From Cyanidioschyzon merolae (taxonomy: Eukaryota): 64,000 bases of DNA. The notes beneath the pieces are model-generated. The model ran no database searches, was not told the DNA's origin, and saw only the letters and a list, made by a program, of their open reading frames with translations. The stretch is from assembly GCA_000091205.1 (NCBI GenBank), contig AP006496.2, one strand, 5' to 3'. A program made the translations under genes and the position numbers. Of this stretch, positions 3,227 through 64,000 are shown piece after piece (positions within the stretch are counted from its first letter, which is position 1; each line of letters begins with the position of its first letter).

Positions 3227-4066
3227 TCAGTCGCGTTCTGATAGGCGATGAAGCACTCCATCCACTTCCTGCTCGGTCAGGACCCGGAAGCGCTTCTTCT
3301 CTTTGGTCACGATGGCAATTTCCAGGTCGGAGGGCTTGAGCTCGGCGCTCGTGACGGACTGAAGTGCGCCGATCGCAAGCTCCAGCGTCTCGTCGTCCGA
3401 GAGCGGTATGTCGCAGAGTGGTGCACCGTATCCTGCCTGCACCGCAGCTCCTGATACGGCAAGCCGATCGCGCTGCTCTTCACTGAGCTCTTCTTGTTTC
3501 TCTCGCAACCGTTTCTCCAGCCAATTCTGGGCCTCAACATCTTTCGCCCCGGCGGCACATGCGCGGTATCCGATGCAGTAGCCGGCTGGATCAACCTTAT
3601 AGAGACGTGGTCCACTGTAGCCGCCCTCGTGATCATCCCAGCCCAGGAAGAGCAGCGTCACCCCAAGCGGGCGCATATACGCGTGCTGTGTGTACACCTG
3701 GTTGATGTCCGCAAGCCGCGTCGCCAGATACGACACGGGCGCCTCGTAGCCGTTCTCGTAGCGAAACTCCGAGGCCTCCGCACGAAGTCGTTGAACCTGC
3801 GCTCTTCCGTCTGTAGCCAGGCCAGCAAACACCACACCGTGCTGCTCCGATATTCGCGCAGCGCTCGACACCGAGTCCGGCTCCACAAGACGATCCGGCA
3901 GCTTCCGCTGAACTGCCACACACACACACTGCGTGCCCCGAACTGCAACCGCCGTTGTGCCCGGTAGCTTCACCGCCTTGAAGGCGTATTCTACTTGGAA
4001 CAGCCGTCCTTCAGGTGAAAACACGGTTATATGCCGGTCATAGCCGGCACTAGTCCCGCGACTCAT
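3227..4066 (-). CDS. PSMA6: 20S proteasome subunit alpha type-6
   Basis: '[32 protein letters not shown]...[18 protein letters not shown]...[19 protein letters not shown]' is collinear with human PSMA6 ('[32 protein letters not shown]...ISQVYTQNAEMRPLG'). The track ORF extends to 4234, but the conserved N-terminus begins at the M at 4066. Confidence 0.9.
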   Translation of the reverse strand: [279 protein letters not shown]

Positions 4067-5237
4067 CACGCGTTTTACGTCTTCCACTATGAAGCGGGCC
4101 TCGTGCAACTGTAGCTGAAGTTCGCAGCGGCGTAGTGCACGAGACATCCGCGCTGAATCTTCGCCATGACGATTTCTGATGACAAAACGTTCACATTGAC
4201 CATGGATCGCAGGGTGCGAGATGGATATTGGCATTCTGGAAAACGTTCATCATGCTGGATCCTACCTCCGATATCCATTACTTAAACTTCTTCTCGAATT
4301 TACTGGTCGCTTCACACGATCCATCGAGCGCCGAGTGCCTGTTTTGAGCTCCAGCTAAAGCGCCCAAACCGCCAATGCTGAAGCAGCACGGAGACAGAAC
4401 AGCTTTGCCATGCTACAGAGGGCATCGGCTCGAGAAGTGTTTCATCCGACACGGGGTCGAGATTCATTATCATTCTGGGAGCCTGCAAGCTGTGCTGATA
4501 GATCTACTGCCTGCGGCAGCGGGAAGCGATTTACAAGGAGTCCAGTGCGACCGATGCGACGCCCAAACGCACCCTACCTGCCCCTTATCCAAGAATAAAA
4601 TACGTTGCGGACGAGCAGCTCAAGACGCTCCACTGCACCTGCCACCGAGGGTAGCATGAAGCACCAGTCCGGCAGACTCAGCCGGCTCGCGGGACTTTCC
4701 GACTAGAATGTAAAAGTTCGACAATATGGAAACCTATTCCCCGTTCAACGTTTATCCTAGAGGGGAACGAAATTGTTATCTTGGCGCTAGTTAGTGGTCA
4801 GTTTCTGTTCTTTGTTCTATAGAGCGCAGTCGATATGCGTACATACAAATCTGGCATGCATGAGACACGAGGCGCATCTCGCCGTTGAAAGGAAACACGA
4901 TCCTTACCACTAGTTGACTTGTTGCTCTATTGGGCATGTTGCATTTGCGTTGAAGTCGTAGCAAAGAAAGTTTTCAGTTCAATCGTATTTCAAACCGCAA
5001 GCAAGCATATTCTAGTGTTTTTCGGTGTTTATAACAGAAGTGTTCGAAGCGGGTTCGTTTTCAAAAAAAAAGAAAAGTTATCGAAATGGAAAGGGAGGAC
5101 CCTGGAGGGCCAGTATCGCTGGTTGGCGGAAGAAACCAAAAGCATGACGGAGCAAAGAGGTACAAGAGAAGACGAGGAAGCATAAGGGGGAGACCCGACG
5201 TTAATGGCTGCACGAAAGACGACACCACGACAAGAAG

Positions 5238-7200
5238 TTGGTGAAAGCCTGTCTTCTGAGACATATCAAGAGCCCGTACTACCAAAAGTTGCAAAAGGCT
5301 GTCAGAAAGCCTGTCAAGTCGTACTCCACGAGTGTGGGTGACGTTTCTTTAAGACTGATGCGTATGGCGAGAGATCTGTATCGCGAATTGCTGCACATGG
5401 AAAGATTCGGGTTCCGTAAGAGTTTTTCAACAGGATCTTCACCAGCTACCTGATGGCTGGAACAGGGAAAACGTCTTGGAGAGACGAGCGAGTGCACGTC
5501 CTCCAGGAAAACTTCGCGGAGTACCGCTTCAACGGTACGTCATACAAGGATGACTCGCATATTTACGAATACGGGGTGATGAAGTACCTCACGAACCTGA
5601 AGAACCACATGATCGTGCGCCTCGAACGCTTCATGGTACGCTCTTTCTTTGCACTCTACCCGGGACTGTCTCGCAAAGGGATATGGGCCATCATCCACGG
5701 TATCACGAAAGATCGTCATCATGAACAGTAGATAGAATTCATCGACAAGAAGAAATCACACAGGAGAAAGAATCAGGGTTATGTAATATGTGTGGCTATT
5801 CAAGAGCACCGTTCGGTCCTGGAGCTTGTCAACCCACAGTGGGAGTATCAGATATGAAAAAAGATGAAGAAAGATGTCATCTCCTCATCCTGCGCTATGT
5901 CGTGTTTTTGAATCGAGAACTCGAACGCAAGGCAGAGATGGATCAGGATATGGAAGAAAATGAAGCGTCGGTGGAACGGAATGCTATGCCTTTGAAGAAG
6001 ATCTTCTATGTCGTTCCGCTATGCAACACCAAGTCACATTTTGTGACGATCGACTCCAGAATCTTTTACGGCGTCATGAAGGAGATCCGCTCGGAGTTCG
6101 ATGTAAGCAGGTAGGAGTTCACTGGCAAAAACTGGGAGACGTACTGGAAGAATACCTTCCATTTCAAACGTCTCAAAACGAGCAAGCAAGGGCTATTCAC
6201 GGAGATCACCGAAACCGATGGAGTATCCATTTGCGCACACTATAGTCGCTTGAAGGCGGATCGTCCTATTGTGTTTTCGGCTTCGCCCTCGCTGAAGCAT
6301 GAAGATGAGAGGGAAGCAGGCCATAAGACGAAGGAGATGCAAGAGAACGACTCCCTGGTCAGCGCAGATCCTGGGAACACGAATATCATAACCATCGCGG
6401 CACGCAAGTGTCGGGAAGATGGTATCGACGGCAACTTACGTCACAAAGACATGCGTCTTTTGAAGTTCTCAAGAGCGAGATACTACCGAGAATCGGGAAT
6501 AATGAATTGGAGGAGGAAAAGTGAGAAATGGAATGCAGGAGTGAGGGAGCAACTGGAAGCGATCAGCCAGGTGACTAGCCATGGGGCGGACTTCAAAGCT
6601 TACCTAGAGTTCATAGAAACTCAAGCTGCTCATTACGAGGAGCTGCGGAAAGAGTACACAAAGCCCCCGCGGGCTCGTCTGCTTATGAACTTGTACTGTG
6701 GGTAGCAGCGTGCATTTGCCAAACTTTTCAATCAGATGAGCACCCTCAAGGAGGTCAAGAGTCAAAGACTCGTAGTAGCTTATGGAGCACGGCGCTGGAG
6801 GCCCAACAGAAGAGCATACCAGCTCTATCAACGAGAGCGTACAAGGAGTGCGCCATTCGTTTCGTCACGGTACCGATAGATGAGTTTCGAACGACCTATG
6901 TGCACCACGAGCTGGGGTGCCTGCTCCAGAGGATCGAGATGCAGTGAAGGCAGCGGAGCCCTGAGGATATAGAAAAGTACGGAGAGCTCACAGAGAAGGA
7001 TGTGGAGTAGAGAGCACGAGTTCGAGGACGACTTGCCCCAGAGAGTACAACCAGCGGCGGCAATAAACGCATGGATTTTGTGAAGCTTGAATTGAACACC
7101 TCCCTCAATGGCAGACGATGTGTGGTATTGAAGACGAGACCCGCCGAGCTGACGCGATCCAACTTTGTGGGCAGCCTGTCAGGTTCGAACCGTACAAGGG
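5238..7200 (+). pseudogene. TnpB/Fanzor-like RuvC nuclease pseudogene (copy A)
   Basis: Segments align with copy B and with ISDra2 TnpB landmarks. 'KCREDGIDGNL' matches RuvC-I 'GVDVGI'; 'SRARYYRES' matches 'PKYYRST'. In-frame TAG at 6112-6114 where copy B has AAG. A 1-nt deletion near 5790 changes frame. The RuvC-III motif is degraded to 'NTSLNGRRC'. Confidence 0.55.
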
Positions 7201-7315
7201 AAAGCCAATGCCGATGGCAAGGCGCCGGCCAAAATAGGCGGGAGGCGTCTGCAGGTGGTTGTGTATATATAGACTCTCTCGTCGGTATGTATTCGCCATG
7301 ACGATGAGAATCAAC
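7170..7315 (+). other. conserved non-coding 3' tail of Fanzor/TnpB-like element A (candidate omegaRNA/fRNA scaffold region)
   Basis: Nucleotide conservation with the tails of the other five copies continues past the stop codons. Shared blocks: 'GAGCTGACGCGATCCAACTTTGT', 'GGGAGGCGTCTGC.GGTGG'. Confidence 0.3.
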
Positions 7316-24877: not shown

Positions 24878-25359
24878 GATGACGGCTCACTAGGATGCAG
24901 TTCTTGAACGTGCTCCGTGCCGCATGCCGCTAGAAGTACGCAACCTGTTTGGGATAGGTTCACGAAGAAGTTATGCTCCCGAAATGTTCGCCTGTGCTGG
25001 CGTCTGTGACTTGTTTTCTCTTGCACAGGCGCTTAGAGTCATAAGTATGTTTGTTTCCGTCTGTAATAAGTCAAATTAGTGCGATTGTGGAAGCTGCCTT
25101 CATTGCAATGCCCTCGACGTGAGAGGCTCCTTGCCGGAGGCTGATTCCGAACGACACGCTGCTTGGTCACGATCCTGGAATACGCAGTGTGTGTAGATGA
25201 TTGCAGGCTCCATTTTCGGCTGTTTCATATATGCGACAGAAGGCGCTGGGCATGACGAGGTCTTGCAATGACCCAAATGGCGCACCTGAACGATCTCCGG
25301 ATTGTAAACCGCTCCTCGGGGCTTCCGTGCTCGCTGCAGATCCATAAAGCGTAACTACA

Positions 25360-25745
25360 GAGCACTTAGCATCTGTTGCACGAGTAGGAAACTGGATGGA
25401 ATGCTCCACTCCAACCTGCGGCGATGCAGCACAGCAGATCCAGATACAATATTTGCAGGACATTTCGCGTCAAGTGCACAGGTAGGAAACTGAAAAGAGT
25501 GCTCCGCTCCAACCTGCGGCGATACAGCACATCAGATACAGGTAGAGTCTTTGCAAGACATTTCGCGTCAGTTGCACAGTTAGGAACCTGACAAGAGCAC
25601 TCCACTCCAGCGAACCGCAATGCAACACAGCAGATCCAAATAAGTCTTTGCTGGACATTTCGCGTCAAGTACACAGATAGGAACCTGAGAAGAGCGCTAC
25701 GCTCCAGCGTGCTGCACCGCAGCCCGAGCTCTATACACGAGATAC
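25360..25745. repeat. ~93-bp minisatellite, ~4 diverged units
   Basis: Recurring unit '...gcacaggtaggaaactg(a/g)a(a/g)agagtgctcc(g/a)ctccaacctgcggcgatgcagcacagcagatccagata...gacatttcgcgtcaagt' with period ~90-95 bp. Confidence 0.75.
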
Positions 25746-27121: not shown

Positions 27122-27539
27122 AAAAATAAACGCGTATCTCTGCGCAGCTCAGAGAAACTCCAACGGTGTCACCGCTTGCAGCAGCGAATCGAGGAGAGTT
27201 TTCTCGGAATGAACTGCGAACGTGCACCGGGTCGCGACGGTGCTCAGCTGGAAGTCGCCGCCGCCGCCGCCGCCGTGCTGCACATCTGAATGGATTGACG
27301 GGCGATACAGGATGTTGTTGTGGTACAGTCTTTCATCTCCATTGTGTTCCATCCCCGGGGTTCTTGTTATCAAATGCTTTTCGCAGTTTATAGCAGATTC
27401 GGCACAAGTGCGTTCATTTAAAAGAAGTACAAATTCCAAAGGAGCGGTACGGACATGGAAGTCTAGGATCCTGGAGGGTCGATGTCGGCGCCTGCTGGAA
27501 AAAGCACGGAATACAATGCCGAGCTCAGAGGACCAAGAG

Positions 27540-29555
27540 AAGATGAAGAGGCAAAAGCAGGAGGTCCGACGTCAACAGCAATTCGAAAGGCTAGACTGTG
27601 AAGAGATTGTAGTGGAAGCCAGTCTTCATCGACATATCAATGATCCGCACAAGCGAAATATGCAAGAGGCCATCAGAAACCGTATCGCGTCGTACTCTAC
27701 GAGTGTTTGTATCGCTTCTCCAGGAATAATCCGTTTGGTGAGGGAGATGGATCACGACGTGACGGAGATCAAAACAGTCGAGGTTTCGGGGGAATTTTTC
27801 GACAGGACCTTTATTCGTTACCTGATGGTTGGCACAGGGGAAATGTCGAGGAGAAATGAGCGAGTGCAAGCCCCGCACGAAAATCATGCTGAATAACGCT
27901 TCAACGGTACTAGATATAGGGACACTGGCGAATCTACGAATACGGCGTGATGGACAACATCACGAACCTGAAGAGCCATATGACCGTGAACCTCAAACGC
28001 TTCATGATACGCTCCATCTTTGCGTTCTTCCCTGGCCTGTCTCGCAAGCGGACATGGGCCATCATCGATGTCAGCATGAACGATCGTCGGAACGAAGAGG
28101 AGATCGAAATTGTCGGTAAGAAGACGCCACGCAAGAGAAAGAATGAAGCTTCTGTAATCCGCGCGACTATTCATGAGCACCGTGCGGTCTTGGGTCTTGT
28201 AAATCCAACAGAAAAGGTAACAGATACAAAAAAGACGCTATCCCCTCATCCTGCGCTGTTTCGTCCTCCTGAACCGAGAGCTCGAACGCAAGCCCGATAT
28301 GGAGCAGCGTGCGGAAGAAAAAGCAGAGTCGGTGGAACGGAAGGTTTCCCTACTTGGGAAGCGCTTCGGCGTCGTTCTGTTGTGCAACATAAAGTCATGT
28401 TTCATGAGTATCGATTCCAGCGTCCTTTACGGTATTATGAGGGATATGTGTCCGGAGTTCTTTATCAGCAACAAGGAGTTTACAGGTCAAAACCGGGAAA
28501 CTTATTGGAGAAATAGATTCGATTCAAGCGTTTCAACACGAGCAAGAAAAGGGTACGCACGGGGCGATCGAAACCGATGTATTAGCCATGCGTGTGCACT
28601 ATCAGCGCTTAACGGCAGATTGTCCAGTTCCGTCGTCGGCTTCGCCCTCGGCGAAGCACAAAAAGAAGAAGGCGGGCCCTGGAACGTATAATCCCCCGGA
28701 GAACAACTTTGTCGTCGGCGTGGGCCCGGAGAACAAGGATATCATGAGCATCGCTGTGTCCAAGTGTGGGGAGGATGGTATCGACGGCAACTTATGCCAA
28801 AAAGACATGCATCTTTTAAAGCTATCGAGAGCGAAATATTACAGAGATTCTGGGGTATTTAATGCGAGGAAACTAATTGAGATATGGAACTCAGGAGTAA
28901 AGGAGCATCTGGAAGCGATCAGCAATGTAACGCTCCGCGGAGTGTACTTTCGAGTTTTTCCGGAATTCATGGAAACCCAAGCTGCTCATTACGAGGAGCT
29001 GCGGAAAGAGTACACAAAGCCGCGTTGGGCTCGTCAGCGTATGAACCTGTACAGACTGAAGCAGCACGCACTCGCCGACTTCCTTAATCTGTTGACCGCC
29101 CTCAAGGAGGACAAGAGTCAAAGGCTTTTATTGGCACACGGAGCAGGGAACTGGGCGTCCAAAAAAGGGAGCATACGAGCTCTATCGGCACGAGCGGACA
29201 TGGAGTGCGCACTGCGTTTTGTCACAATATCGATACATGAGTTCCGAATAGCGTACGTGCTCGATGGGCTGGAGTGTACACTTCAGAAGGTCGATACGGA
29301 CAGAAGCCAGCCGAGCGTTTCGGAGACAGAAAAGTCCGGAGAGCGGACAGAAGAGCAAATGGAACGGAGGGCACGAGTTCGGGGAATCCTTGCATATTTG
29401 AGTACAGCCAGCGGCAATGCTGGAAAGAGTCGGTGAATCGAGACTTCAACGCCGCCACCAATATCAGGAAATGTGCGGTGCTGGAGAAGAGACCCCAGGA
29501 GCTGACGCGATCCAACTTTGTCGTGCAGCCTATCAGGGTCGAAGTGTACAAGTAG
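27540..29555 (+). pseudogene. TnpB/Fanzor-like RuvC nuclease pseudogene (copy B)
   Basis: Landmarks versus ISDra2 TnpB: 'LKRFMIRSIF' ~ 'ARFVYNHFL'. 'KCGEDGIDGNL' = RuvC-I. 'AKYYRDS' ~ 'PKYYRST'. 'LYRLKQHALADFLNLLTAL' ~ '[22 protein letters not shown]'. 'AHGAGNW' ~ 'SDAGWG'. 'CIFEYSQRQC' is the second zinc-finger Cys pair. 'NRDFNAATNIRKC' ~ RuvC-III 'DRDENAALNIRR'. The protein is split over all three frames by indels (a 10-nt deletion near 28235, a frame change near 28580). Confidence 0.6.
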
Positions 29556-29660
29556 CTGAAGACGATAGCAGCGGGCCAGTCAAAATAGGCCGTAAGGCGC
29601 CTGCGCGTTGGTATGAATTTATCCAACACGGCCGAGAGAAAGTTTTCGTTTCACTGAGCG
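29525..29660 (+). other. conserved non-coding 3' tail of element B (candidate omegaRNA/fRNA scaffold region)
   Basis: Conserved with the other tails beyond the stop at 29554-29556, ending in '...gagagaaagttttcgtttcactg' (compare copy E '...gtgaaacgttttcgtt'). Confidence 0.3.
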
Positions 29661-32391: not shown

Positions 32392-33619
32392 GGCGCAATG
32401 GCCGCGGACTCTCGCCGCATGAACACCACCCAATGGTGTTTCAAGTGGGTCCTAAATACATCTAATGCTGTATTGCGAAAGCTTTTTATGTTCGATGTAG
32501 TTATACCGACGAAGTGCATGCTGTGCGTATGCGTAGAGAGGCAGCTTTCGGGTATGCTTAAAGAGCAGCGACCTCGGGCCTCGTAGCGATGACGCGACAT
32601 CGATTCCGTAGAAAGAGTGGTGAAATTGAGTGGTCGCCTGGCAGCGAAGCACGAGGGATACGTGCCGATGCCAACATTGCTGCCTTGAGCGCTGGATACG
32701 GAAATTGCGGAGCAGGGACGGAAGCCGGCGAGGGTGTCGTATGGGATGGAGGCTTTCAGGGAGGTCTCCGAACACGCCGCGCCCAAGAGACTCGTGCACC
32801 TATGGCGGATACTGCTCCAGATGCCGGGTCCGGTCGAATGCCCACACGTGGTACGTCCTCTGAGCATATGGATTGGTTGTGTGGTTCTGGTTGCGCCTTG
32901 GCTTGCCTTGCGCCGAGCGTGCTGCGCTGAGGTTAGCGAGCGCCCGCCAATCAGGACCTGACCTCGCGCGCATCCAGCAGTGGTTCAAACATGCTGCGCC
33001 CGTTGAAATGTCCTCAGAGTTGCTTGCATGTGGGCCCCAAGTGTTCTTTCCAACTTAATTCCGAATGATGTGTGGGCTTTTGCGCACGCCCGGCCGCTAT
33101 GCCTGCGAGATGCACACGCGCTACCACACTCATCTCAGGTTAAAATAGAAAAAGAACGAAGCGCACTCTGCCTGGATTTTTTATTTTCGAATTTTTTCTT
33201 AGACCTAGGTTATTGACGTTCGAAGATCATCAGTAAGAGTTTATACACTTGTACGAGGTTGCTGGGTTCTCTTTCGTTTTTTTCGGAGATGCTCCTTCGA
33301 CGCGTTGCGGCTGGAATTTATTCCTTCACCGCCACCAAGATGACTCGCGATGTATTCGAACGCGGGTTCCTAAAATGACGGATATCATTATCCCATTCAT
33401 ACGTAAAAGACTCAAATCTTCGCATTTTCTCAAATGTAGCATGCACAAACCACGCATTTCTCAACCTGCCAGCCTTTCTGTTTGACGGTAATTCGAGGGC
33501 GCAGCGACTGACGCCGCTGAACTGAGGAGCAACGAATCTCGATGTCGCCTATTGAAAACTTGTTCACAAGCTGATGACGAAAAGTGACTGAAAATGCCAC
33601 GACAAGTGATTGATTCCGT

Positions 33620-34120
33620 TTGAAAAATGAATCCTCCTATGTTTATGGTCATCGACGAAATGGAATTCATCACCTACATCATAAGTCTTACTGGATATGC
33701 TCCCAGAGGCTTACATCTCTTCTGTTTGGATGGAGAAGGGTGCTGGACTCGGACCTGTCATCGCAGCGATCGCCTCCGGTGTAGGCTGCGCCACTCTGTT
33801 TCGCGGAGGCGTGCATGGCTCGAGCTTTCTCGACTTGTTTCCCTGCCTGGGTTTTCCTTCTGGTGCTCGTATTATCGTGGACAATATCGTGTTATACAAT
33901 TCCTGTATCCAACGGAACAGCATACGCTATCGTGAGTAGCAGACAGAGTACTGGTCGAGGGTATCGCCTTACAGAATTTTTTATCGTTTAGGGTGCGGCA
34001 CCTGGCGCGGAAACGAAGGAGGACACCGACGACATCCCTCAATTCCCGTCACGGGAATGTATCGAGCACCGCAGCACGCTTTCACCTACCGCAAAGCGGT
34101 GCTCAGAGTAGGGGATATTG
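33620..34120 (+). repeat. dispersed repeat family 3, copy 2
   Basis: Aligns with 60130-60640: 'atcgacgaaatggaattcat...ctcccagaggcttacatctcttctgtttggatggagaagggtgctggactcgga' versus 'gtcgacgaaatcgcactcga...ctccgagaggtttccttctattctgtttgtatgccagagcgtgctggactcgga'. Confidence 0.6.
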
Positions 34121-34798
34121 CAGCGGACTTATGGGAACACCTGATCACGCTCACGTATTGAGAGTGCAAATAGTGTATCCAGGCTCAATACGAAGAAGAT
34201 GAAAATGGGAAGCGAAGCATGGATTGCAGCTTCCGTCTCTGAATCAAATGCCTGAACAACATCCGGAAGTACCAAAACCACGACTTGAACATTGTCTCCT
34301 TTATCTTTTGCCAGCAAACAATGAATCTGGATAGACAGAAGAGACCTGCGTAAAATAACCCTGAGATAAGAGACAAGCAAATGAAGCAGTCGCATAACCA
34401 AGTCCACAAACGCTGGTATTGATAATCGTGGAAAGAGACCCAAACTTTAGTATGCACGCCCGTATTCGCGCAATGGGCGTTTTTCATGGTTCTCAACTGG
34501 ATGTCCGCGTTGCTCTGTGTCGCTTGCTGCAATGCTTCAAAGAGAGCGCTAAACTACTCGTTTCTATAAATTACAAATTCGGCCGCATCGCAGTACCTTA
34601 TCGTTCCGAAAGGCGGTAATCGCAAGCACGACTTTTAGGTACATCACGGACATGCGCCGCGTACCGCCGTTTCTGCTCGCGAAACGCGCAGAGGGCCTCG
34701 GCCGGTGCGGCGTCATCAGCATCCCTGCCCGCGCTGCGCATGCGCTATCGTTGCTCCATATCGAGTTCGAGAACGGGAATACACGTCCTGCGAACAGG

Positions 34799-37988: not shown

Positions 37989-39419
37989 GCGCCCACTAGT
38001 CCAGACAGTTTCCAGTTTAGGAGCACCTCAGTGCCGTTGAACGCTGCGGCGTTCAGGCCTGCTGGTATGAGCGGGTACAGAACCAACGATCGTTTTCAGA
38101 GACGTTCTGGCTCGTTGGCTGATCGAATGATTCTTCCAATTTTCCGTTCGTTCAGTGAAGCAGCGCTTTTGATAGTTCATAGCAGCCAATCCTGATCAAC
38201 GTTGAAAGACTTGATGCGCTTTCTTTGTAAGTGCCTCGGAGATGATGTTACATAAAGTAAGAGGACGTTCGTAGCGGTGGATTATATACTGGGTGCAATG
38301 GGTTCTGGAACACCTGCCCAAGCACGCCCTTTTGAATCGTTTTCTGCTAGATATTCAACACAAAGAATGTTTTTGTGGATTGCGGAAAGGAGACGGAAAG
38401 ACTTTGAGATGACGGCTAGCTTGCGAAAATGCCGAAACTTCTACAAGTCTTTCATTCTTCGATTTGCACTCGGATGAGCCGCTCTTCGTGCAGTCCATAT
38501 CGTGAAGCTCGAGCATCCAGAGTAGAACTTATAAAAATGCTTGTGGGCGACGGCCTTCTCGATAACCGATTCAACTTCATACGTGCTCTGAGAAAGACTA
38601 CCAAAAAGGCCACCGTATTCGAAGAGTCCATACCGTTAACAAGCACGGTGATGAAGCGGCAGAGATCGACGAAGGAAGAAAGGGCGCCTCTATGAAAAGC
38701 CATTGCGCGTTGACCGGTACGCGATCCACTTCGGACTACAACGCGGACGCTTTATAGTCTTTGAACTCAATTCTGTTTCACAAGTGTTGCGTTGTATAGC
38801 AGCAGGTCGGAATCACGATGGAATGCACTGTGTAGATCGTAGACGGATCGCTTGTAGTATATATTCTTTAATGAACTTTGCAAGGAGGACTGCATTTTTT
38901 CCTCATTTCAGTACTAACACAGTACTCAGATAGTTGAGAGACACTGAAAGAACCAAGAACATGCGTCCCTCGCCAAAAACCGATATTCTCTAAGAATGAT
39001 TGCCGGTTGTCGTGGTAAACGACCCATTGCACACCTTCCGGGAAGGAAAAGCGACGACAGTAGCCGCCACAGGCATCTCCGTTTGTCAACAGCTCGTTCA
39101 TATTGTCCAGAAAACACTGGGATACAGTCGTAAAGAAGGTCATAGATCATTCACGGACATCTTCCACCGCAATCGCAATTACGGAATCACTGGAACGTCG
39201 CGATCGGAATGAAGTACAGGGACGTCGGCTTTCTCGTTTTAGTTGATGTGACTTGCTTCGAAGGAGACGATCGGAGCCCATCTGGGTATTCGCGGAGCAA
39301 ATAGCGCGTTGTATATCCGATCGAACTCCAAGAGAACCATGACATCATCTGTAACAGCTGCGGTGGATACATTTGGCGACATTAGTTTCGCTCGTCGAGA
39401 TGGCTCATAAAACAGCACC

Positions 39420-39926
39420 CATGACATGGAATCATCAAATACTTTTTCCACGACACCTGGCAATGTCCTTCCATTGGACAACGTGGCATTTCACCATTCC
39501 CCTCGAGTTCGAGTATTTGCCGATTCTATTCGGGTAGAATCCTCTCCTCGCCGACGATCGAGAGAAGAAGAAGAGGTGAGATAAACCAGAAAAAGTGTGT
39601 GCCTGAAGGGACGATGACGAGACTGTAATGGCACAGAGGGCACAATTTCGAGGACTCCTCGCATTGATCAGTTCAACCAGCGCCAATGCACGTAATGAGT
39701 TCATGGACCGAGACACCAACGCCGCCATCAATATCAGACGATGTTTGGTGCTGAAGACGAGACCCAAGGAGCTGACGCGATCCAAAATCCCAGGGGCAGC
39801 CTCCCAGGCTCGAAGTATGCCCGTATAAAAACTGAAACCGATAGTAGTCGTTCAGTCGGGAAAGCCCGGGAAGCGTCTGCGAGTGGGTAGATATGTATCC
39901 TCCATGGTTGTGAAACGTTTTCGTTA
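39420..39926 (+). mobile_element. Fanzor/TnpB-like element, short internal-deletion copy E
   Basis: 5' block remnant ('aatcctctcctcgccgacgatcgagagaagaagaagaggtgagata') joined at 'gggacgatgacgagactgtaatggcacagag' directly to the RuvC-III segment. ORF 39628-39828 reads '...DRDTNAAINIRRCLVLKTRPKELTRSKI', the best-preserved RuvC-III motif (ISDra2 TnpB 'DRDENAALNIRR'). The tail runs to '...gggtagatatgtatcctccatggttgtgaaacgttttcgtt'. Confidence 0.6.
39790..39926 (+). ncRNA. candidate omegaRNA/fRNA scaffold region (3' tail of copy E); speculative
   Basis: Non-coding after the stop at 39829, yet conserved with the other five tails: 'ctcgaagt.tgc', 'ctgaaaccgatagtag', 'gggaagcgtctgcgagtgggtagatatgtatcctccatgg'. 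Confidence 0.25.
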
Positions 39927-46819: not shown

Positions 46820-47699
46820 ACAAGATTCGGAGGATGGGCGGCTGTTTTCGTCATGTGCGGCAGCTGCACGGCGTTCGCGTCAACTGCAGTTCAGCGCTTC
46901 GTTCATCATGGCGGTGCTGGACGCCAGCCCGCAAAACCAAATGCGCAACAGCACATTTGCTTATAGAGCGAGTACAGTGCTCGCTGCAGACGCGTCATGC
47001 AGTCGCTGCAGCTTCGATTGCAGCGCATGCATCGGACGTGATGAGCCGAGGTTTTTGTAAACGTGCCAGAAAACTTGATATTATCTACACAACGGTGCGT
47101 GAACAGTTCACGATTTTCAAAAAATGATCACATGACTTTGCGCTCCTCTCTGCTTTCATGATGATGTGTTTACGGCGCATTTTTTGAGGTGCGACACTCG
47201 AAGAACGCATATCCATTTGCTGCTGTGTTACAAGCTGGAAACCACCTACGACAGCACAACGCGCTGCAGTCAGTCGCAGCGCAGCTTGGAAGAGGTACAG
47301 AACAGCTGCGTCGGCCGCTTGCCAGTGACGCGGCACCTTCTCTCAAGTAGTTGGTGCCGCCACGCATTGCAGTTCGTGTCTAGATGCTTCGAGAGTTGTC
47401 GCTGCGACCACCTAAGATACTCAACGCCCCGAGATGATGTCGAATTCCCGGTCTCGCGGTTTCGGGTTACAAGTTCACCGTCGCATATACTAAGTCTGCC
47501 TCCAAGCATTCCTAGTCCCGGGAATGGACCAAAATTTTAGGAAAAGACAGGTCCGAGAATGACGGAGTGGAGTACCTGTTGCAACGGAACAGCAATCGCT
47601 TCGCTTCGTATTTTGCGGGCAATTTGCTTGCCGGGAGAGTCATCGGATTCGATATCTTGATCCTATCGTCTTTCAACGCAATTGTGCTCAATCCTCAGG

Positions 47700-48230
47700 T
47701 ACGTGCCATCGAATGCTTTTTTCGCGGTTGTAGCAGACGCGTTCATGTTTAGAAATAAAAAATCCAAGGGAAAGGTACGGACGTGGTTGTCGGGGATCCC
47801 GGAGGGCCGGCATCGTCGGATCCGACGAAAAAACGAAAAAATACTCTCCTCGTCGACCATCGAGCGAAGAAGCGCAAGTGAAGAAGCAGCAGCAGAAGGG
47901 TTGTACGCGAGAACAGGTGCTTGCCCTACGGGACGATGACGAGACTGCTATGGCACAGAGCGCACGGGTTCTAGGTATTCATGCAAAGGTGCGTTCCGCC
48001 AGCGGCAATGCACGTAAGCAGTTTGTCAAACGACACCTCAACGCCGCCATCAATATCAGACGATGGATGGTGCTGAAGACGAGACACGAGGAGCTGATGC
48101 GATCCAACACTTTGTGGAGCAGTCTCTTGTACTCGAAGTGTACACGGTGGAGCTGAAGCCGTCAACCCGTGGCCGGTCAAAAACTGATGGGAGGCTTCTT
48201 CGCATGGGTATTAGTGTACCAGCTCGAGCC
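47700..48230 (+). mobile_element. Fanzor/TnpB-like element, short internal-deletion copy C
   Basis: 5' block 'aatgcttttttcgcggttgtagcagacgcgttcatgtttagaaataaaaaatccaagggaaaggtacggacgtgg...ggatcccggagggccggcatcg', then junction 'gggacgatgacgagactgctatggcacagag', then RuvC-III ('KRHLNAAINIRRWMVLKTRHEELMRSN', ORF 47878-48156) and a partial tail. Confidence 0.6.
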
Positions 48231-48779
48231 GACACCCTCTGCGGTACAGCAACGCCGATCTATCTCTCGGTGCCACGACAGCACGGGCGCTGTAGGCGCT
48301 ATTGCGAATCCATCAATGCGTGCACTCGGCGCACGAGAGAACGTATGAAACGACCAATATAGCCGAAAAGACTCATGGGTTATGGAAGTTGGATGTTGGT
48401 AGAAAGATGGATGCTTCACCACGCGCTGATACTACGCACATAGTAGGGGAACACTGACAAGTTTTGCCAAACAGAACATGCGTCGAAGCTACGGCAAACC
48501 AGTGCATGGATAAAACAGAACTTTTAGGGCCTTGTATGTATCAAAAGGACATGCCGTGTGGAAGCGTATGCCGCCTCCGCTGCAGCCGCCGGCCCGCCGA
48601 GACTCAACGCGATGCGCAGGCGCGTCAAATACGAACCTGCAGCGTAACGGACGACAGGAGCGTCGGCGCGTTGGGTACACACTACACCCGCCACGGTCTG
48701 GTGTAGCATAGCGCGTGCCTGTGGGTACACTGCCTGAGGTTCGGTTTATGCGCTGAGCACCGACGCTCTATCGCAGTAC

Positions 48780-54479: not shown

Positions 54480-55110
54480 ATTCTAGACAAGATCAGCAAA
54501 ACGAACAATGTTTCACGGTCATGGAAGATAAATATATCCAACCATCCGCAGACGCTTCCCAGCCTTTCCCAACCGGCAGCATGCTATTGGTTTTAGTTTC
54601 TCTCTGCACACATCGAGCCTTTGAGGTAGCCCTACGAAGTTTGATTGCGTCAGCGCCGCGGGTCCCGTCTTCAACACCAAGCATCTTCTGGTATGGGTCG
54701 CGGGATTGAAGTCCCACTTCATGATCTCCTTGCGTTTATTGCCTCTGGTTGAGCTCACCGAGGGAGAGCGTGCTCGAGCTCGCACCCTCTGTGCCACCAA
54801 AGTCTCCTCATCATCCCGTTGAGTAAACACCTTTTCTCGCTTATCTCACATCCTCTTCTTCTTCTTCTCGTCATTTGCGCTTCTTCACTTGATGGTCGGC
54901 TAGAAGAGGATTTGATCGATTCTTTTTTTCGGTGAGCCGGCGATGACGGCCCTCCGGGATCCCCGCCTTCCATGTCCATACCCTTCGCTTGGATTTTTTA
55001 TTTCTTGAAAATGAACACATTCCTTTGGAGGCTTCGGCGAGAACCATTCCGGAGGGGTAAGCGCTTGCGGAAGAGAAACGATATGTGCCACGGTATGGCG
55101 CCATGTGCGG
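54480..55110 (-). mobile_element. Fanzor/TnpB-like element, short copy D (minus orientation), degenerate
   Basis: Minus-strand ORFs 54871-55104 ('RNKKSKRRVWTWKAGIPEGRHRRL', the 5' block) and 54519-54830 ('WDFNPATHTRRCLVLKTGPAALTQSNFVG', a degraded RuvC-III). The tail ends near 54495 ('...ccatgaccgtgaaacattgttcgtt' on the minus strand). Confidence 0.55.
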
Positions 55111-56030
55111 AACGCCTCAGCGATTCGCCCAGTGGACCGATTATTACGTTTCACGGTAGAACGCACTCCTTGGATGAAGCTGAACCTCGTAGAGTACGCA
55201 GGAATGAAAAGCAGCTCTACTCCCCGGATAGAATCGGCAACAGCTCGAACGCAAGAGGAATGATCAAATACCACGCTGTCCGATAGGAGGTCGTCGCCAG
55301 ACGTCAGGGAGGAGTCTCCAATGGTTCGGCAAAGTTGACGGTGCTGTTGTATGACGCTCTTCCACTTGAGAAACCGAGGTCGCCGAATGACTCCACCACG
55401 CCAAGAATAGATGGTGATGTCATCCTTCTCTTTGGGTTCGATTTCACATGCAACGGGCTCCCGGCTGCGCGACAACCCAGGTGCACTCCGACCGTTTCGT
55501 CCGAAGCAAGTCTCGTCAACTGAAACAGAAAAACCGATGTGCCTGTGTCTCATTCCGATCCCAAAGTTCCAAGAATGTTGTAGCAGGTACGATGTCGGTG
55601 GAAGATGGCGGTGCTTGAACTTGGACTCTTTCCTTGAGACTGTATCGCGGTGTTTTCAGGGCCAAAATGAACAAGCTGTTGAGAGAAAGAGACGCCCCTG
55701 GAGACTGCCATCGTCGCTTTTTGCTCTTCGTAATGCGTCCAAGAGGTCGTCTTCTACCATTGACGGCAAACAGCGTCTGATTATACCTGTTTTTGGCACA
55801 GAGCGCACATAGGCTTCTTTCTGTCGCTGTGGCTTAATCATGTGAGGACTGCGATATGACCGACCTGAGAGAGGAATGCTGTCCTCCTTGCGCTTTTCAT
55901 TAAAGAACACATCCTATGTGCAATGCGTCTACGATCTACAGCATACATTGCATCGTTATTTCGATCTCCTGCTGCACACCACTTCGGGGGTGAAATCATA
56001 CAGAGCTGAAAGACTCCAAAAGGAAAGATT
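54985..56030. repeat. dispersed repeat family 2, copy 1 (~95% identical over ~780 bp to 61935-62700; weaker similarity to ~62970)
   Basis: Near-identical runs, e.g. 'cattcctttggaggcttcggcgagaaccattccggaggggtaagcgcttgcggaagagaaacgatatgtgccac'. The longest ORFs (minus 54900-55553, 217 aa; plus 55411-55812) have no recognisable domain. Abuts the 5' block of copy D. Confidence 0.8.
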
Positions 56031-56224
56031 CGCAGCGAGCATCCAGGTCGCACGAGTCGCTTCCAGCAGGCACCTCGGGATAGAACACAAGCGTCCAGTG
56101 GCGGTGAGCCGTGTTCGCAGTCGAGGCACTTCGAGAAGGCGCTTTTCTTTCCAGAAAACGTTGACGGGCTTGGTGTGTGCGAGCGTGCGTGCGTACCACC
56201 TAGGCAGCGAGTCCCAGAGCGTTC

Positions 56225-56965: not shown

Positions 56966-57537
56966 TCTGTGCGGCAAGCCTGCTGAAAGGCATCGTCCAG
57001 CGCAAGTCCAAAGGCGGCGCAACAGCAGCATCTATCTGCACAACGGGAACGCACACCAGAAGTGCGACGAGAACAAGTCACGGGTTTGCATCCTGGCTGC
57101 AGCGGGAGCACCTGGAACGCACTCATGACACACACTCTCTCACCGACAGGGGCACGAGAACAAGTCGCAAGTTTGCACCCTGGCTGCAGCGGGAGCTCCT
57201 ACAACGCACTCGTGACACGCTCTCACACCGACAAGGGCACGCGCCTCAGTTTTGCGTTCGTGCTGCTGGAAGTGGATTGACTGGTGCACGATGACTGTCG
57301 ACATCGGGGCCGTCGCTGGCTGTCTCTGAGCGGACTCGGCAGCAGTGCCTCGTGTAGTGTTACCAGTATCGAAGTGCAAGAGCGGAAACCTCCAAACCTG
57401 AAAAACATGCGCGACGCCCGAACAGCCGAATGCGTCATGCTGCGGACCCACTGGAGCACGCACCGGGTTAGAAACGCTGCCCTGTGCACGCGCTCGCAAG
57501 GTTGCACTGCAGTAAAACCTTCGATGCGCTTTGCGAG

Positions 57538-59362: not shown

Positions 59363-60129
59363 TACGCGAGTAGAAGCGAAAGCTTGGCCAGTGCGGCTGC
59401 AGCGCGCGCGCGCCCAAGCGCATACCTCGAGCGCGCAACACCAGTCGTGTTGCCTGCTGGAGTGCAGTCCGCGGATGGAGGCAGTGTTCCGGTGAGTCGG
59501 CAACGCTGCGGAGAGGCGAGGTACATTTCAGGTGAGTTGTGCTTCAGACACTAGGAGACGCTTGCGAAACGAGAACAGCGTTTGCTGGACGCTGGGGAAC
59601 GCGATCGAGGCGGTGAGCCTGCGGGTACCCGGCTTGCAGTAGACGCTAGACCAGTGCCAGGTGAAGATGGAACGCGAAACTATTCGGTCTCTTCCTGGTA
59701 TGAAGTTTTCTCCAAAGTTTTCGTTGGATATAATACGCCGAGATTCGACGTGGGAATGTAAATGGCTTTGGGATTTGTGAATGGTTTCAGGTTTCTCTGG
59801 TGTGTTTTCCAGAGTGACTCCAATGACGCTCTGCCGCTGGAACTCGTTCCATCACGGGAATCAAGAAGGTTCGCGATGCCCCCGAACAAGCACCCGGATC
59901 ACGACCAACACCCTGATCCATTGCACATGTGCAAGTCTCGACGCTTCTACTTTCGTTACGAGTCGCACGCTCAAATCACGTATTCTTGGGGGTTTCGACC
60001 TTCCTGTTTCAAGGCGATTCGCTGGTGCAGCATTGGGCGCTGCTGGTGTGGCGAGGCAAAACGATGAATGTCGCCTCGTGATGACTTGTTCACGAGCTCA
60101 TACGGAAAGAACGCGGAAGTTGTGACGTC

Positions 60130-60640
60130 AGATGATGAACTCTGATCGAAATATAAATCCTTGTTTCTTTCTTGCGGTCGACGAAATCGCACTCGACACT
60201 GGCAGCATGAAACTTATCACGGGACATGCTCCGAGAGGTTTCCTTCTATTCTGTTTGTATGCCAGAGCGTGCTGGACTCGGATTTCAGTCATCAGGGCGA
60301 TCGTTTCTTGCGGGGCGTATTTTACTGGTTTGCACAAAGGGAGCGTATACGGGTAGAATTTTTTCGGCTTCTTCAGCCTGGCTTTGCGTTCCATATCTGT
60401 TTCGTCATGGACAAGCTCACGTTATACAAAAATACCCATCGAATGGAACAGCGTGAGCGTGCAGCGAATAGCGTCCACCCCGGCGAACATTGCCCAGAGA
60501 AGGCCTGTGACCGCAGGGTACGGCATCGGGCGCGGAAACGGAGAAAGGGCATCGAGAGGAGCCCTCTGTTCCCGTTATCAGCATGTATCGAGCGATGAGG
60601 CAAGCGTTCACGTGCCACAGAGCTGTGCCCTGACCAGGAG
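60130..60640 (+). repeat. dispersed repeat family 3, copy 3
   Basis: Aligns in blocks with 33620-34120 and 14200-14610: '...gcgcggaaacggagaaagggcatcgagaggagcc...', '...gatgaggcaagcgttcacgtgccacagagc'. Confidence 0.6.
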
Positions 60641-61524
60641 GTGCGATGGAAATTTGCAGACACCTGACCACAGCCAAGTACAACCGATGCGAATAACGCA
60701 CCCAGGCTGTCTACGAAGGAGATGCAGAAGGCGTGCGAAGCGCCGATCGAAACGAACGCCCCTGCATGAAACGCGAAGAAAAAACCGGAAGCTGCGATAG
60801 AATGACTTTAACGATAACATCAGCATCCTTCGACTGATAACACAACGGCGCCGGCGAGCCAGGAAACACCGGTGTGTTGAAAGCGCGCGATAGGCGTACT
60901 GGAACGGGAGCAAGCACCGAAAAAGCGCCCCAAACGCTTGTCTTCATGACATTCGTAAGAGACCAAAATCTTTAGTGTATGCACCCGAGTTCACAAAGTG
61001 ACCTGTTCCATCATGGTCTGACACGGGCGTGTCTCGATTCACGTGCCGAATGTGCAGTCAAAAGCGCTCCACAGAGATAGAACGGCTTCGCGATGCCTTC
61101 CCAGACCTCAGCTCGACGCGTGGAGAGAAGGCACACCAGCCGGGACTCCTTGTTGGCATGAGCGCCCACAGCTGGTTGGCCCAGGCCTGCGTGCAGCGGC
61201 GCCGAACGATTCCATGAAGGAACTCGTACACGACAGCGGCGCGGTACTGCTGGGCATCCCTTCACAGTCTGCAGGCGACTGCGTCGCGCTCACGCCCCGT
61301 GAGTGTCGCCACGCCACCCTGCACTGCGGTGATGCAATACGCATTCGCTCAGCCGACGTGTCTGGTCAGCATGGCTTTCCAACTAATTTTCTCCATTTCG
61401 CGTAGGCGATAGCAGGGACGCCCGCGCGACCTGAAGCCCTGAAAGACCGAAGCTTTAGCAGACGGCAGCATGTGCGAGCATCAGCGGAACGCATCACTCA
61501 AACTGTGCACCACACTCGCCGGGT

Positions 61525-61990
61525 ATACCATGGGGTCGATGGAATGAAACCGGTTTGCGACCATGGTTCATAAATGTATCTACCCACGCGCAGACACCTC
61601 CCAGCCTTTTTCGACCAGCCTCCTGCTATCGATTTCAGCTTTTCCGTGTACACCTCGAGCATCGGAGGCTGACCCACAAAGTTGGTTCATGCCAGCTCTG
61701 CGCGTCTCGTCTTCAGCACCGCACATCACCTGATATTGATCGCGGCATTGAAGTCTCGGCTCGCAAAATTCCTTGCTTTAATTGCGGCTGCGGGAACTCA
61801 CCAGTGTAAGGATTGCTAGAGCTCGTGCCCTCCGTGACATGTGCTGTTCTGGCAGCACACTGTACTTTACGATCGACAAAGCGCACTGCTGGCTTGTCTC
61901 CACCTAAACCGTCTGAAGTATGCGTCCGAGGTCGTCGCTTAATTTCTTGAAAACGAATACATTCCTTTAGAGGCTTCGGCGAGAACCATT
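61525..61990 (-). mobile_element. Fanzor/TnpB-like element, short copy F (minus orientation)
   Basis: The minus strand of 61690-61775 reads 'DFNAAINIR*CAVLKTRRAELA*TNFVG' (RuvC-III with in-frame stops). Tail: '...ggctgggaggtgtctgcgcgtgggtagatacatttatgaaccatggtcgc'. A 5' block remnant at 61935-61990 joins repeat family 2 copy 2. Confidence 0.55.
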
Positions 61991-62970
61991 CCGGAGGGGT
62001 AAGCGCTTGCGGAAGAGAAACGATATGTGCCACTGTATGGCGCCATGTGCGGAACGCTTCAGCGATTCGCCCAGTGGACCGATTATTACGTTTCACGGTA
62101 GAACGCACTCCTTGGATGAAGCTGAACCTCGTAGAGTACGCAGGAATGAAAAGCAGCTCTACTCCCCGGATAGAATCGGCAACAGCTCGAACGCAAGAGG
62201 AATGATCAAATACCACGCTGTCGGATAGGAGGTCGTCGCCAGACGTCAGGGAGGAGTCTCCAATGGTTCGGCAAAGTTGACGGTGCTGTTGTATGACGCT
62301 CTTCCACTTGAGAAACCGAGGTCGCCGAATGAATCCACCACGCCAAGAATAGATGGTGATGTCATCCTTCTCTCTGGGTTCGATTTCACATGCAACGGGC
62401 TCCCGGCTGCGCGACAACCCAGGTGCACTCCGACCGTTTCGTCCGAAGCAAGTCTCGTCAACTGAAACAGAAAAACCGATGTGCCTGTGCCTCATTCCGA
62501 TCCCAAAGTTCCAAGAATGTTGTAGCAGTTATGATGTCGGTGGAAGATGGCGGTGCTTGAACTTGGACTCTTTCCTTGAGACTGTATCGCGGTGTTTTCA
62601 GGGCCAAAATGAACAAGCTGTTGAGAGAAAGAGACGCCCCTGGAGACTGCCATCGTCGCTTTTTGCTCTTCGTAATGCGTCCAAAAGGTCGTTATCCACG
62701 AATCGCCGCAAGCATGCACACGGCATATCGGTTATTGACGCATCGTGCATCTACCTGATTCTCTCAGCGTACCTGAACCATCAAAGTCCTCTTGTATGAC
62801 TGACCTCAACGAGGAATACATTCCTCTTTGCACTATTCCATATATAATCTAGCCCATAGGCAGTTCGTCTAAGATCTATAGAATACATTGCATCGCGATG
62901 TCGATCACCTGCTGCACACCACATCTTGAGTGAAATCAAAGAGAGTCGAAAGACTACGACAGGAAAGCGA
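61935..62970. repeat. dispersed repeat family 2, copy 2
   Basis: See 54985-56030. Minus-strand ORF 61713-62495 (260 aa) is nearly identical to the ORF at 54900-55553. Confidence 0.8.
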
Positions 62971-63314
62971 TTCGCTGGTGCACGGATCGCCGCCGCGCCG
63001 CCGCCGCCGCCGCATCGCCGCCGCCGCGGAAACGCTCCTGCGCATACCAGTGGCAGTGCTAGTCGCACTCGTGGCATCCGAGGAGGCGCTACAGTGTGGC
63101 AAGTGCCACGGTTGCAGGTCCTTGGGCCTGTTGGAACAGTGCACGCTACGAGTCATGGTGTTGGACGGCGCGGGACACGCCCTAAGCTTGGCTTTTGTAG
63201 GAGGAATTCCGACCTCGAAGAGACGCGCGGCAGTGCGCCCGGGGTCCCGTCCTCGAGGGTCACCGCCCTTCTGGAGTAACTTCCCGTGCACTTGGCGATG
63301 GGGGAGCGCGCGGA

Positions 63315-64000
63315 TGCGCTTGGCGCCTCGGCAGCTTGGGCGTAGCTTTTTGCGCATGGAGGTTTCACCTGAGGTTCGCGAGCGAGTCCAGGCGCATGAG
63401 GTTTTCATGCCGGCGCTGAGCTCGACAATGACCGAGGGGAAAGTTGTTCAGTGGTTGAAGAAAGTCGGCGACCGCATCGAGAAGGGTGACGTAATCCTGG
63501 TAGTCGAGTCGGACAAGGCGGACATGGATGTCGAGGCATTCGACGAAGGCTATCTGGCGCATATACTAACAAAAGAGGGCGAAACAGCCGTCGTAGGGGC
63601 GACGATAGGCCTGATCGCCAAAAACGTTGAAGATATCGAAGCGATTCAGGCCTGTGGACTGGATTGCATTGTGGATGGCAGCGGGTCGCGGCACGATGGA
63701 ACAACGGCGGTGGAACCTGGCGATGCAGCACCTGCTCCGTCCACGCACCAGAGAGAGTCTGCTGCTGAGCGGTCCGCAGCCTTCGGGGGACGAGACGCCA
63801 TAGTGACTGCACCTGCAGCGGCCGCTCCACTGGTGCCGAAACCGGCCGGCACAGTTGAGGTCTTCTTGCCAGCGCTTAGTTCGACCATGACAGAAGGCAA
63901 GATCGTAGAATGGACCAAGAACATTGGCGATGAGGTGAAGAGCGGCGACGTCATCATGGTTGTCGAGTCGGACAAGGCAGACATGGACGTAGAATCTTTT
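63315..64000 (+). CDS. dihydrolipoamide acyltransferase (2-oxoacid dehydrogenase E2), N-terminal part with two lipoyl domains; runs off the window
   Basis: Open frame from 63315 (second ATG at 63357) to the window end. Encodes '...HEVFMPALSSTMTEGKVVQWLKKVGDRIEKGDVILVVESDKADMDVEAFDEGYLAHI...' then an Ala/Pro linker, then 'VEVFLPALSSTMTEGKIVEWTKNIGDEVKSGDVIMVVESDKADMDVESF'. Two biotin/lipoyl-attachment domains with the lipoyl-lysine motif ESDKA. Confidence 0.85.

Follow-up and report, generated by a model that had tools for sequence, protein, structure and literature searches.

We report that a 64,000-nucleotide stretch of contig AP006496.2 (assembly GCA_000091205.1) from the cyanidialean red alga Cyanidioschyzon merolae, hereafter the window, very probably carries decayed copies of a transposable element, non-autonomous in appearance, whose sole gene encoded a Fanzor1 protein. 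Fanzor1 proteins are carried by transposons of eukaryotes and are related to TnpB, the RNA-guided DNA endonuclease of bacteria. An original prediction, made from the sequence letters without database searches, had proposed that the copies encode a TnpB/Fanzor-like protein, and this is borne out by profile searches of the PDB that match Fanzor1 structures only and by structural comparison with Foldseek. Its count of six family copies in 64 kb was also about right: we find two long copies, A and B, and four short derivatives. Fanzor-derived sequence totals 10.3 kb, or 16% of the window, and every copy of the element in the window is inactive. The two long copies are as follows.

4174-7291, + strand: copy A, a full-length, dead Fanzor1 element of 3,118 bp with a non-coding 5' module of ~0.64-0.75 kb, remnants of an open reading frame (ORF) and a short 3' tail.
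27323-29655, + strand: copy B, also dead, a Fanzor1 element from which the 5' module of ~0.75 kb is missing; its limits are set by homology.

When the window is compared with itself by blastn, positions 5150-7270 and 27521-29622 form an alignment of 2,128 columns with 71.6% identity. The two long copies are therefore real, with an identity below the ~75% first given, and the spans first assigned to them (4995-7315 and 27370-29660) are replaced by the limits listed above, copy A being the longer. The ORF remnants run from an ATG at 5144 to about 7210 in copy A, and from an ATG at 27516 to a stop codon at 29553-29555 in copy B, where a 3' tail of ~100 nt follows. Inspection of the ORFs reveals no long one in either copy, and three-frame translation shows the conserved reading hopping between frames in both. 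Stitching the frames picked by conservation between A and B yields proteins of 680 amino acids (A) and 673 amino acids (B) that are about 50% identical to each other. Measured against a near-intact relative of 724 amino acids, copy A has at least three frameshifts and nine in-frame stops, and copy B at least four frameshifts and one in-frame stop. Substitutions between A and B are nearly flat across the three codon positions (0.279/0.254/0.306), and 12 of the 14 insertions and deletions that separate them break the frame, not being multiples of three. Copies A and B are thus old, neutrally decayed pseudogenes. Across the family, identity between copies ranges from 67 to 75%.

The assignment to Fanzor1 depends on family profiles and on structure. 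Neither the raw ORF pieces nor the stitched A and B proteins have a match in Pfam or NCBIfam, and single-sequence phmmer searches of the PDB with the stitched proteins return noise only. A search of a 5.8-billion-protein collection with the A and B alignment recovered 25 homologues, most of them from Joint Genome Institute (JGI) hot-spring metagenomes and about 50% identical, with three distant members at 25-27% identity. A profile of seven sequences has a single match in the PDB, the Fanzor1 protein SpuFz1 of Spizellomyces punctatus (8GKH, E 9.3e-5). The family was widened to 66 members and an alignment of 50 sequences was made, whose profile matches PpFz1 from Parasitella (E 4.5e-15), SpuFz1 (E 5.2e-12) and GtFz1 from Guillardia (E 6.9e-3), with nothing else below E=1; no TnpB, Cas12 or Fanzor2 chain in the PDB is matched by it even at E<=10. 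Among 1.84 billion representatives searched exhaustively with HMMER, 6,020 clusters fall within the family at E<=1e-3, and 803 of them reach E<=1e-30.

An AlphaFold2 model of the closest relative, P0001, has a predicted local distance difference test score (pLDDT) of 77 and a predicted template-modelling score (pTM) of 0.68. The top seven Foldseek matches of this model are all Fanzor1 (E 4e-11 to 2.5e-7) and align over 617-745 columns. Their template-modelling scores are about 0.59 in the case of SpuFz and lie at 0.48-0.52 with GtFz and PpFz; Cas12 matches are marginal only. The modelled protein shows a predicted Fanzor1 architecture, consisting of a WED/REC lobe and a RuvC/TNB lobe. Sequence profiles and structure agree independently, and we therefore assign the protein to Fanzor1. 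Many family members (P0001-P0022, P0154 and others) carry a precomputed match to Pfam PF26935 (DUF8286), a domain of unknown function; the results above indicate that DUF8286 is part of a Fanzor1 nuclease.

Fanzor proteins are recognised by a D-P-G motif at RuvC-I, a Gly or Pro at the position of the canonical RuvC-II Glu, and an alternative Glu ahead of the zinc-finger segment (PMC10711439, PMC10530073). All three signature features are found in the family, and the corresponding sites in copies A and B are these.

6361-6387, + strand: RuvC-I of copy A, 'SADPGNTNI', which aligns to the D-P-G column of the family and retains the catalytic Asp of DPG.
28717-28743, + strand: RuvC-I of copy B, mutated to 'GVGPENKDI', with Asp changed to Gly.
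6772-6789, + strand: canonical RuvC-II site of copy A, 'VVAYGA', with Gly in place of the TnpB catalytic Glu.
6876-6899, + strand: alternative RuvC-II Glu of copy A, 'IDEFRTTY'.
29233-29256, + strand: alternative RuvC-II Glu of copy B, 'IHEFRIAY'.
7080-7109, + strand: RuvC-III region of copy A, now 'VKLELNTSLN', a degraded form without the catalytic Asp.
29433-29465, + strand: RuvC-III of copy B, 'VNRDFNAATNI', retained and aligned to 'NRD' of SpuFz1 and PpFz1.

The canonical RuvC-II site of copy B reads 'LLAHGAG'; Gly at this site is the substitution typical of Fanzors (PMC10530073). The alternative Glu aligns to 'DEYKTS' of SpuFz1 and 'DEFRTS' of PpFz1. Across the 50-sequence alignment D318, P319 and E490 are invariant and G320, R558, D559, N561, A562 and A563 nearly so, while DPG is present in 94% and the RuvC-III motif in 95% of 166 full-length relatives. 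The predicted active site of the family has the Asp in DPG, a Gly at the canonical Glu, the alternative Glu in DEFRTS and the Asp in RD.NAA. Copies A and B cannot work as nucleases because each has lost one catalytic Asp together with its reading frame.

Several landmarks of the original prediction are revised by these alignments. Its RuvC-III motif 'NRDFNAATNI' is genuine in copy B and degraded in copy A, and the RuvC-II region that it had called short or unclear appears so because the RuvC site is rearranged, with Gly at the canonical position and the Glu elsewhere. The segment 'GIDGNL' (28777-28794), proposed as RuvC-I, sits ~20 residues past the true RuvC-I in a clade-specific insertion. 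The supposed Cys pair 'CIFEYSQRQC' (29391-29420) results from translation out of frame; in the conserved frame, 29386-29427 reads 'ILAYLSTASGNAGK', which matches 'LLALVSTTNDGKK' in relatives. Its remaining pairings with ISDra2 TnpB find no support in the sequences, and no TnpB chain appears in the PDB profile searches at E<=10.

A Fanzor1 element of this host has been described before. Bao and Jurka (2013, Mob DNA 4:12) reported the Fanzor1 protein CMe-1 in Cyanidioschyzon merolae, encoded by the element CMe-1A, with a consensus of about 3 kb and about 150 copies each about 80% identical to it; CMe-1A has no terminal inverted repeats (TIRs), its target-site duplications (TSDs) were given as undetermined, and its 5' 635 bp are identical to a separate element, TE-N2_CMe (PMC3627910). 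We mapped the ends of the element in the window with 82 related loci. Homology upstream of copy A to about 30 metagenomic copies extends to ~4175, and 5' conservation among about 30 copies starts at '...GATTTTTTTCGATGACAAAACGTTTACA'; the 5' terminal motif of copy A, GATGACAAAACGTTCACA at 4178-4195, is kept in about 30 metagenomic copies. At the other end, similarity stops ~100 nt past the stop codon, near 29655 of copy B. The full element is about 3.1 kb long and consists of a 5' module of 0.64-0.75 kb, an ORF of ~2.1 kb (about 680-725 amino acids) and a conserved 3' tail of ~100 nt. No TIRs were found in the copy A element. Its 5' module and flanks are placed as follows.

4174-4813, + strand: 5' non-coding module of copy A, which also occurs solo and is likely the 635-bp TE-N2_CMe.
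4160-4173, + strand: left member of the direct repeat TTCGCCATGACGAT (14 bp), abutting copy A on its 5' side, a candidate TSD.
7292-7305, + strand: right 14-bp direct repeat TTCGCCATGACGAT, flanking copy A on its 3' side.

The 5' module also stands alone, in copies of both orientations that match positions 4261-4813, 4261-4780 and 4261-4599 of A. Matched by description, this module likely corresponds to TE-N2_CMe and thus to the 5' end of CMe-1A. The TTCGCCATGACGAT 14-mer occurs exactly twice in the window, both times flanking copy A, and none of 300 random window pairs gave a direct repeat as long as 14 bp. For copy B there is a weak candidate flanking repeat, the 10-mer TTGACGGGCG, which lies 19-28 nt outside the mapped ends and was equalled by 2 of 300 null pairs. 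Flanking repeats in 12 other full-length copies are no better than controls, and an empty site was not found, a colinear metagenomic contig carrying the same insertions. The candidate TSD of copy A is accordingly a lead, not a result. The perfect preservation of the 14-mer is surprising for such a decayed copy, and in part the 14-mer bears a loose resemblance to the consensus for the element's 3' end.

The remaining members of the family in the window are truncated or chimeric, and are listed here together with the conserved tail of copy B and a stray piece of 5' module.

29556-29655, + strand: non-coding 3' tail of copy B, conserved among copies like the coding end; by analogy, the place where the ωRNA scaffold and right end would be expected.
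38755-39925, + strand: S1, an unrelated 5' module of ~0.8 kb joined to the final ~70 codons of the Fanzor ORF plus the 3' tail.
47668-48210, + strand: F4, in which the Fanzor 5' untranslated region (UTR) and the start of the ORF are joined to the 3' end.
48223-48371, - strand: an isolated fragment of A-type 5' module, 70% identical to 4289-4434.
54500-56033, - strand: S2, an S-type 5' module of ~1 kb, the Fanzor 5' UTR and start, a deletion, the last ~70 codons and the 3' tail.
61543-62975, - strand: S3, of the same type as S2.

On their 3' side, S1, F4, S2 and S3 keep only the last 60-110 codons of the ORF and the tail, and a 3' end of ~370 bp is the sole part common to these four derivatives and to A and B. 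S1 has a RuvC-III motif, 'MDRDTNAAINI', at 39703-39735. S2 and S3 lie 6.9 kb apart and share, within 54997-56033 and 61939-62975, a block of ~700 bp that is ~99% identical and flanked by parts of 40-79% identity, a pattern suggestive of gene conversion or segmental copying that took place recently between old elements. An ORF of 251-271 amino acids in the 5' module of S2 and S3 was considered as a gene and set aside as probably spurious: it has no Pfam match and is interrupted by stops in S1 and in loci L036, L042 and L043.

Column conservation of the tail, computed over 67 copies, is about 0.83-0.85 at 29550-29609, 0.64-0.75 at 29610-29649 and 0.43 by 29670. There are two tail subfamilies, with short hairpins in both. 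One small hairpin pairs in 78% of cells and never covaries. Helitron-like ends (a 3' hairpin followed by CTRR) were tried and rejected, as they fit some group-1 tails (B and S2, ending in ...CTGA) and neither the 5' end nor the group-2 tails. Published Fanzor1 ωRNAs are 75-150 nt long (PMC11423790).

The host context is that of an alga. The window is rich in genes without introns, of the kind expected in a photosynthetic eukaryote, and includes genes for Rubisco LSMT, a PPR protein, a DUF1818 protein, anthranilate synthase, proteasome alpha, eIF2alpha, formin and S-adenosylmethionine (SAM) synthetase, the last sharing 93% identity with the Cyanidiococcus yangmingshanensis enzyme and about 70% with that of Galdieria. 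The flanking genes are red-algal nuclear genes, and the element is encoded in a eukaryotic genome. A 19.5-kb metagenomic contig (L089) is 98.95% identical to the window, colinear with it and bears the same insertions over the part that it covers (S1, F4 and S2).

A number of observations weigh against the identification of these copies as a Fanzor1 element with the expected biology. The cysteines of the CxxC...CxxC zinc finger are absent from all cyanidialean proteins ('TSYTHHELGC...LLALVSTT'), and among the 166 full-length relatives 7% have the first Cys pair and 14% the second, so that the usual zinc finger of Fanzor and TnpB is missing. Since zinc fingers are reported in 'many', not all, Fanzors (PMC10711439), we take this as a difference of the clade and not as grounds for exclusion. 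The Pfam models of TnpB type (OrfB_IS605 and Cas12f1-like_TNB) stay below threshold, the best score being that of PF07282 in a distant relative (E 0.0038, 17.8 bits against a cut-off of 26.3 bits). The check that had been proposed on the frame-corrected protein gives significant Fanzor1 matches for the family profiles on the one hand and sub-threshold Pfam TnpB models on the other; with Gly at the canonical Glu site and no adjacent transposase ORF, the protein also departs from a bacterial TnpB. A search for intact copies, likewise proposed, found an intact ORF in none of the 82 related loci (L001 carrying a single in-frame stop, and L007 an ORF of 772 amino acids whose N-terminus is frameshifted), and any activity of this subfamily is thus putative. 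Tests for a structured RNA in the tail gave no sign of one: RNAalifold on 18 tails gives -0.64 kcal/mol and zero compensatory pairs, a consensus-fold calculation on the 67 tails gave no consensus fold, fold z-scores of the tails, at +0.6 to -1.6, indicate no significant stability, for two helices chosen by hand covariation does not exceed that of shuffled or slid controls, and Rfam has no match for the tail. Because every copy is neutrally decayed, this test of an ωRNA is weak either way. Finally, identity with CMe-1A was judged from its published description only.

Could the resemblance to Fanzor be a matter of chance, the ORF deriving from an unrelated transposase or another family with an RNase H fold? 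The failure of the stitched proteins on their own to match anything in Pfam, NCBIfam or the PDB, and the several motif pairings that proved wrong, would fit such an explanation, but it is effectively refuted by PDB profile matches confined to Fanzor1 and by the top Foldseek matches, and we consider it highly improbable. It is just as hard to believe that A or B, or both, is a functional or domesticated host gene read through introns or programmed frameshifts. Fanzor genes of other eukaryotes do contain introns (PMC10530073) and copy B has just one in-frame stop within its aligned pieces; against this, the host is essentially intronless in the window, the frame changes fall inside conserved blocks with no splice-like gaps, a catalytic Asp is missing from each copy, the three codon positions have changed almost equally, and copy B lacks the 5' module. 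As for contamination by a bacterial IS605 or IS607 TnpB or by a giant virus, or a recent horizontal insert, distant intact relatives do reside in giant-virus-like neighbourhoods. The copies themselves, however, are interleaved with red-algal nuclear genes of equal GC content, they are old and decayed, S1, F4 and S2 are also present on the 98.95%-identical syntenic contig from another sample, and the signature of DPG with an alternative Glu, together with the Fanzor1 structural match, speaks against an ordinary TnpB. This origin has practically no probability.

A different question is whether the Fanzor gene is merely a passenger on elements that are retroposed, or mobilised purely through recognition of their 3' end in the manner of a LINE (long interspersed nuclear element) partner or a Helitron, instead of belonging to a DNA transposon similar to IS200/IS605 or IS607. 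We regard this as unlikely, while acknowledging the features that point to it: the lack of TIRs, the common start point of B and F4 (both without the 5' module), the chimeric derivatives that have only the 3' ~370 bp in common, candidate flanking repeats that are unequal, with 14 bp at A and perhaps 10 bp at B, the small hairpin near the 3' end, and the published link of Fanzor1c to LINEs and Helitrons (PMC10530073). Opposed to these are the absence of a poly(A) or simple-repeat tail and the lack of any reverse transcriptase or Rep/helicase found to share the 3' end; moreover, the flanking repeats are not reproduced in the 12 other full-length copies, the tail lengths of A and B differ when the repeats are read as TSDs, and no empty site was found.

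Dead copies of a transposable element with a Fanzor1 gene thus stay our preferred reading, and the way in which active members would have worked can be outlined by analogy. As in SpuFz1, GtFz1, PpFz1 and TnpB, the partner bound by the nuclease would be an ωRNA made from the element's 3' end, with the sequence just beyond the right end as its probable guide. Guided cleavage would then be directed at matching DNA next to a short adjacent motif, and could favour retention or spread of the element, as it does in TnpB systems. Among the ORFs of the window, no transposase ORF is found in or adjoining the element. An element without its own transposase must depend for transposition on a factor in trans, and the retention of the same ~370-bp 3' end by all derivatives suggests that this end is needed for mobility, for the RNA or for both; taken together, these points suggest mobilisation in trans dependent on the 3' end. 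A fuller proposal would be that the elements represent a distinct, largely zinc-finger-less Fanzor1 clade, known to Pfam only as DUF8286, whose roughly 6,000 representative clusters often lie on giant-virus-like contigs, and that the red-algal elements move without a transposase of their own via the shared ~370-bp 3' end (the presumed region of the ωRNA and right end), make target duplications of 10-14 bp and in this combination fit no classified transposon superfamily. We put it forward as a tentative scheme that is quite unlikely to hold in all these parts.

Other features of the window and of related loci are recorded here in their own right. On the - strand, a proteasome-alpha ORF of 335 amino acids (3227-4234) overlaps copy A; its Pfam domain begins only at residue 65, and the true start is therefore probably near 4060, which would leave copy A ~100 nt upstream, within the promoter region or 5' UTR of this gene. 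A dispersed repeat pair of ~1 kb (33257-34218 and 59783-60741, 64-67% identity), apparently non-coding and unrelated to the Fanzor element, has a weak match also in loci L060 and L075. Smaller repeats comprise direct-repeat copies offset by ~98 bp with 77% identity at 25336-25715, adjoining the DUF1818 gene, a local repeat of ~88 bp with 86% identity at 57067-57241, and a pair of 138-bp repeats 459 bp apart at 63397-63993. Beyond the window, intact distant relatives occur in L083 (7075-9869; GCA_013573015.1, JACCDW010235443.1) and in the ENA marine metagenome scaffolds L086-L088, within gene-dense, giant-virus-like neighbourhoods that include a D5 primase-helicase, HNH proteins, 2-oxoglutarate (2OG) oxygenases and a Ser/Thr kinase. 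In L083-85 the Fanzor gene lies 33 bp downstream of a DDE_3 transposase gene (Tc1/mariner/IS630 type), which suggests a mariner-type carrier for the Fanzor gene at these loci. At L001 (814-2710, - strand) an RVT_1 reverse-transcriptase gene stands head-to-head with a near-intact Fanzor1 copy, ~0.7 kb upstream of it; this RVT_1 gene does not share the 3' tail of the Fanzor element.

The importance of the find is modest and consists mainly in the correct annotation of dead Fanzor1 copies. Nevertheless, the present clade is missed by the Pfam models of TnpB and would also be missed by regular-expression censuses that require CxxC zinc fingers. Being recognisable only by family profiles or structure, it may be under-counted in censuses of Fanzors. 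A precisely bounded copy of 3,118 bp with a 14-bp flanking repeat, together with chimeras that share only the 3' end, provides first concrete clues to the build and movement of Fanzor1 elements without TIRs. Members of the family are plentiful in hot-spring metagenomes, and there are intact cousins on giant-virus-like contigs; these could supply active thermotolerant or compact nucleases.

Compared with known systems, the find is a known kind of element, of a family type published in 2013, and its novelty is low; Rhodophyta are also mentioned in a later Fanzor census (PMC10530073). Like CMe-1A, the element resides in a cyanidialean host, is about 3 kb long (3,118 bp here), lacks TIRs, has a single Fanzor1 ORF and is present in many old copies about 20-30% diverged. 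Its first ~635 bp likewise exist as a separate short element (TE-N2_CMe there, the solo module corresponding to 4174-4813 of A here). Unlike the description of CMe-1A, one copy here has a perfect 14-bp flanking repeat, and the chimeric 3'-end derivatives are not described there.

Sequence identity to SpuFz1 (8GKH), PpFz1 (9CF0) and GtFz1 (9CER) is only 13-16%. In contrast to these three proteins, the red-algal proteins and most of the clade lack the CxxC...CxxC cysteines of the TNB domain, and the clade has a specific acidic insertion after RuvC-I. SpuFz1, PpFz1 and GtFz1 have been characterised by biochemistry and structure; in the present clade an ωRNA, a TAM and cleavage activity are predictions, and its copies in the window are dead. 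With the bacterial TnpB of IS200/IS605 elements (ISDra2, 8H1J) the family shares a RuvC-fold core and the RuvC-III motif D.NAA.NI and, by analogy, the expected logic in which cleavage would be guided by an ωRNA from the element's 3' end. Like Fanzor2 (mimivirus ApmFz2, 9B0L; IS607-like elements), it is a TnpB homologue borne by eukaryotes or viruses that combines DPG with the alternative Glu, and some of its distant relatives are likewise found on giant-virus-like contigs.

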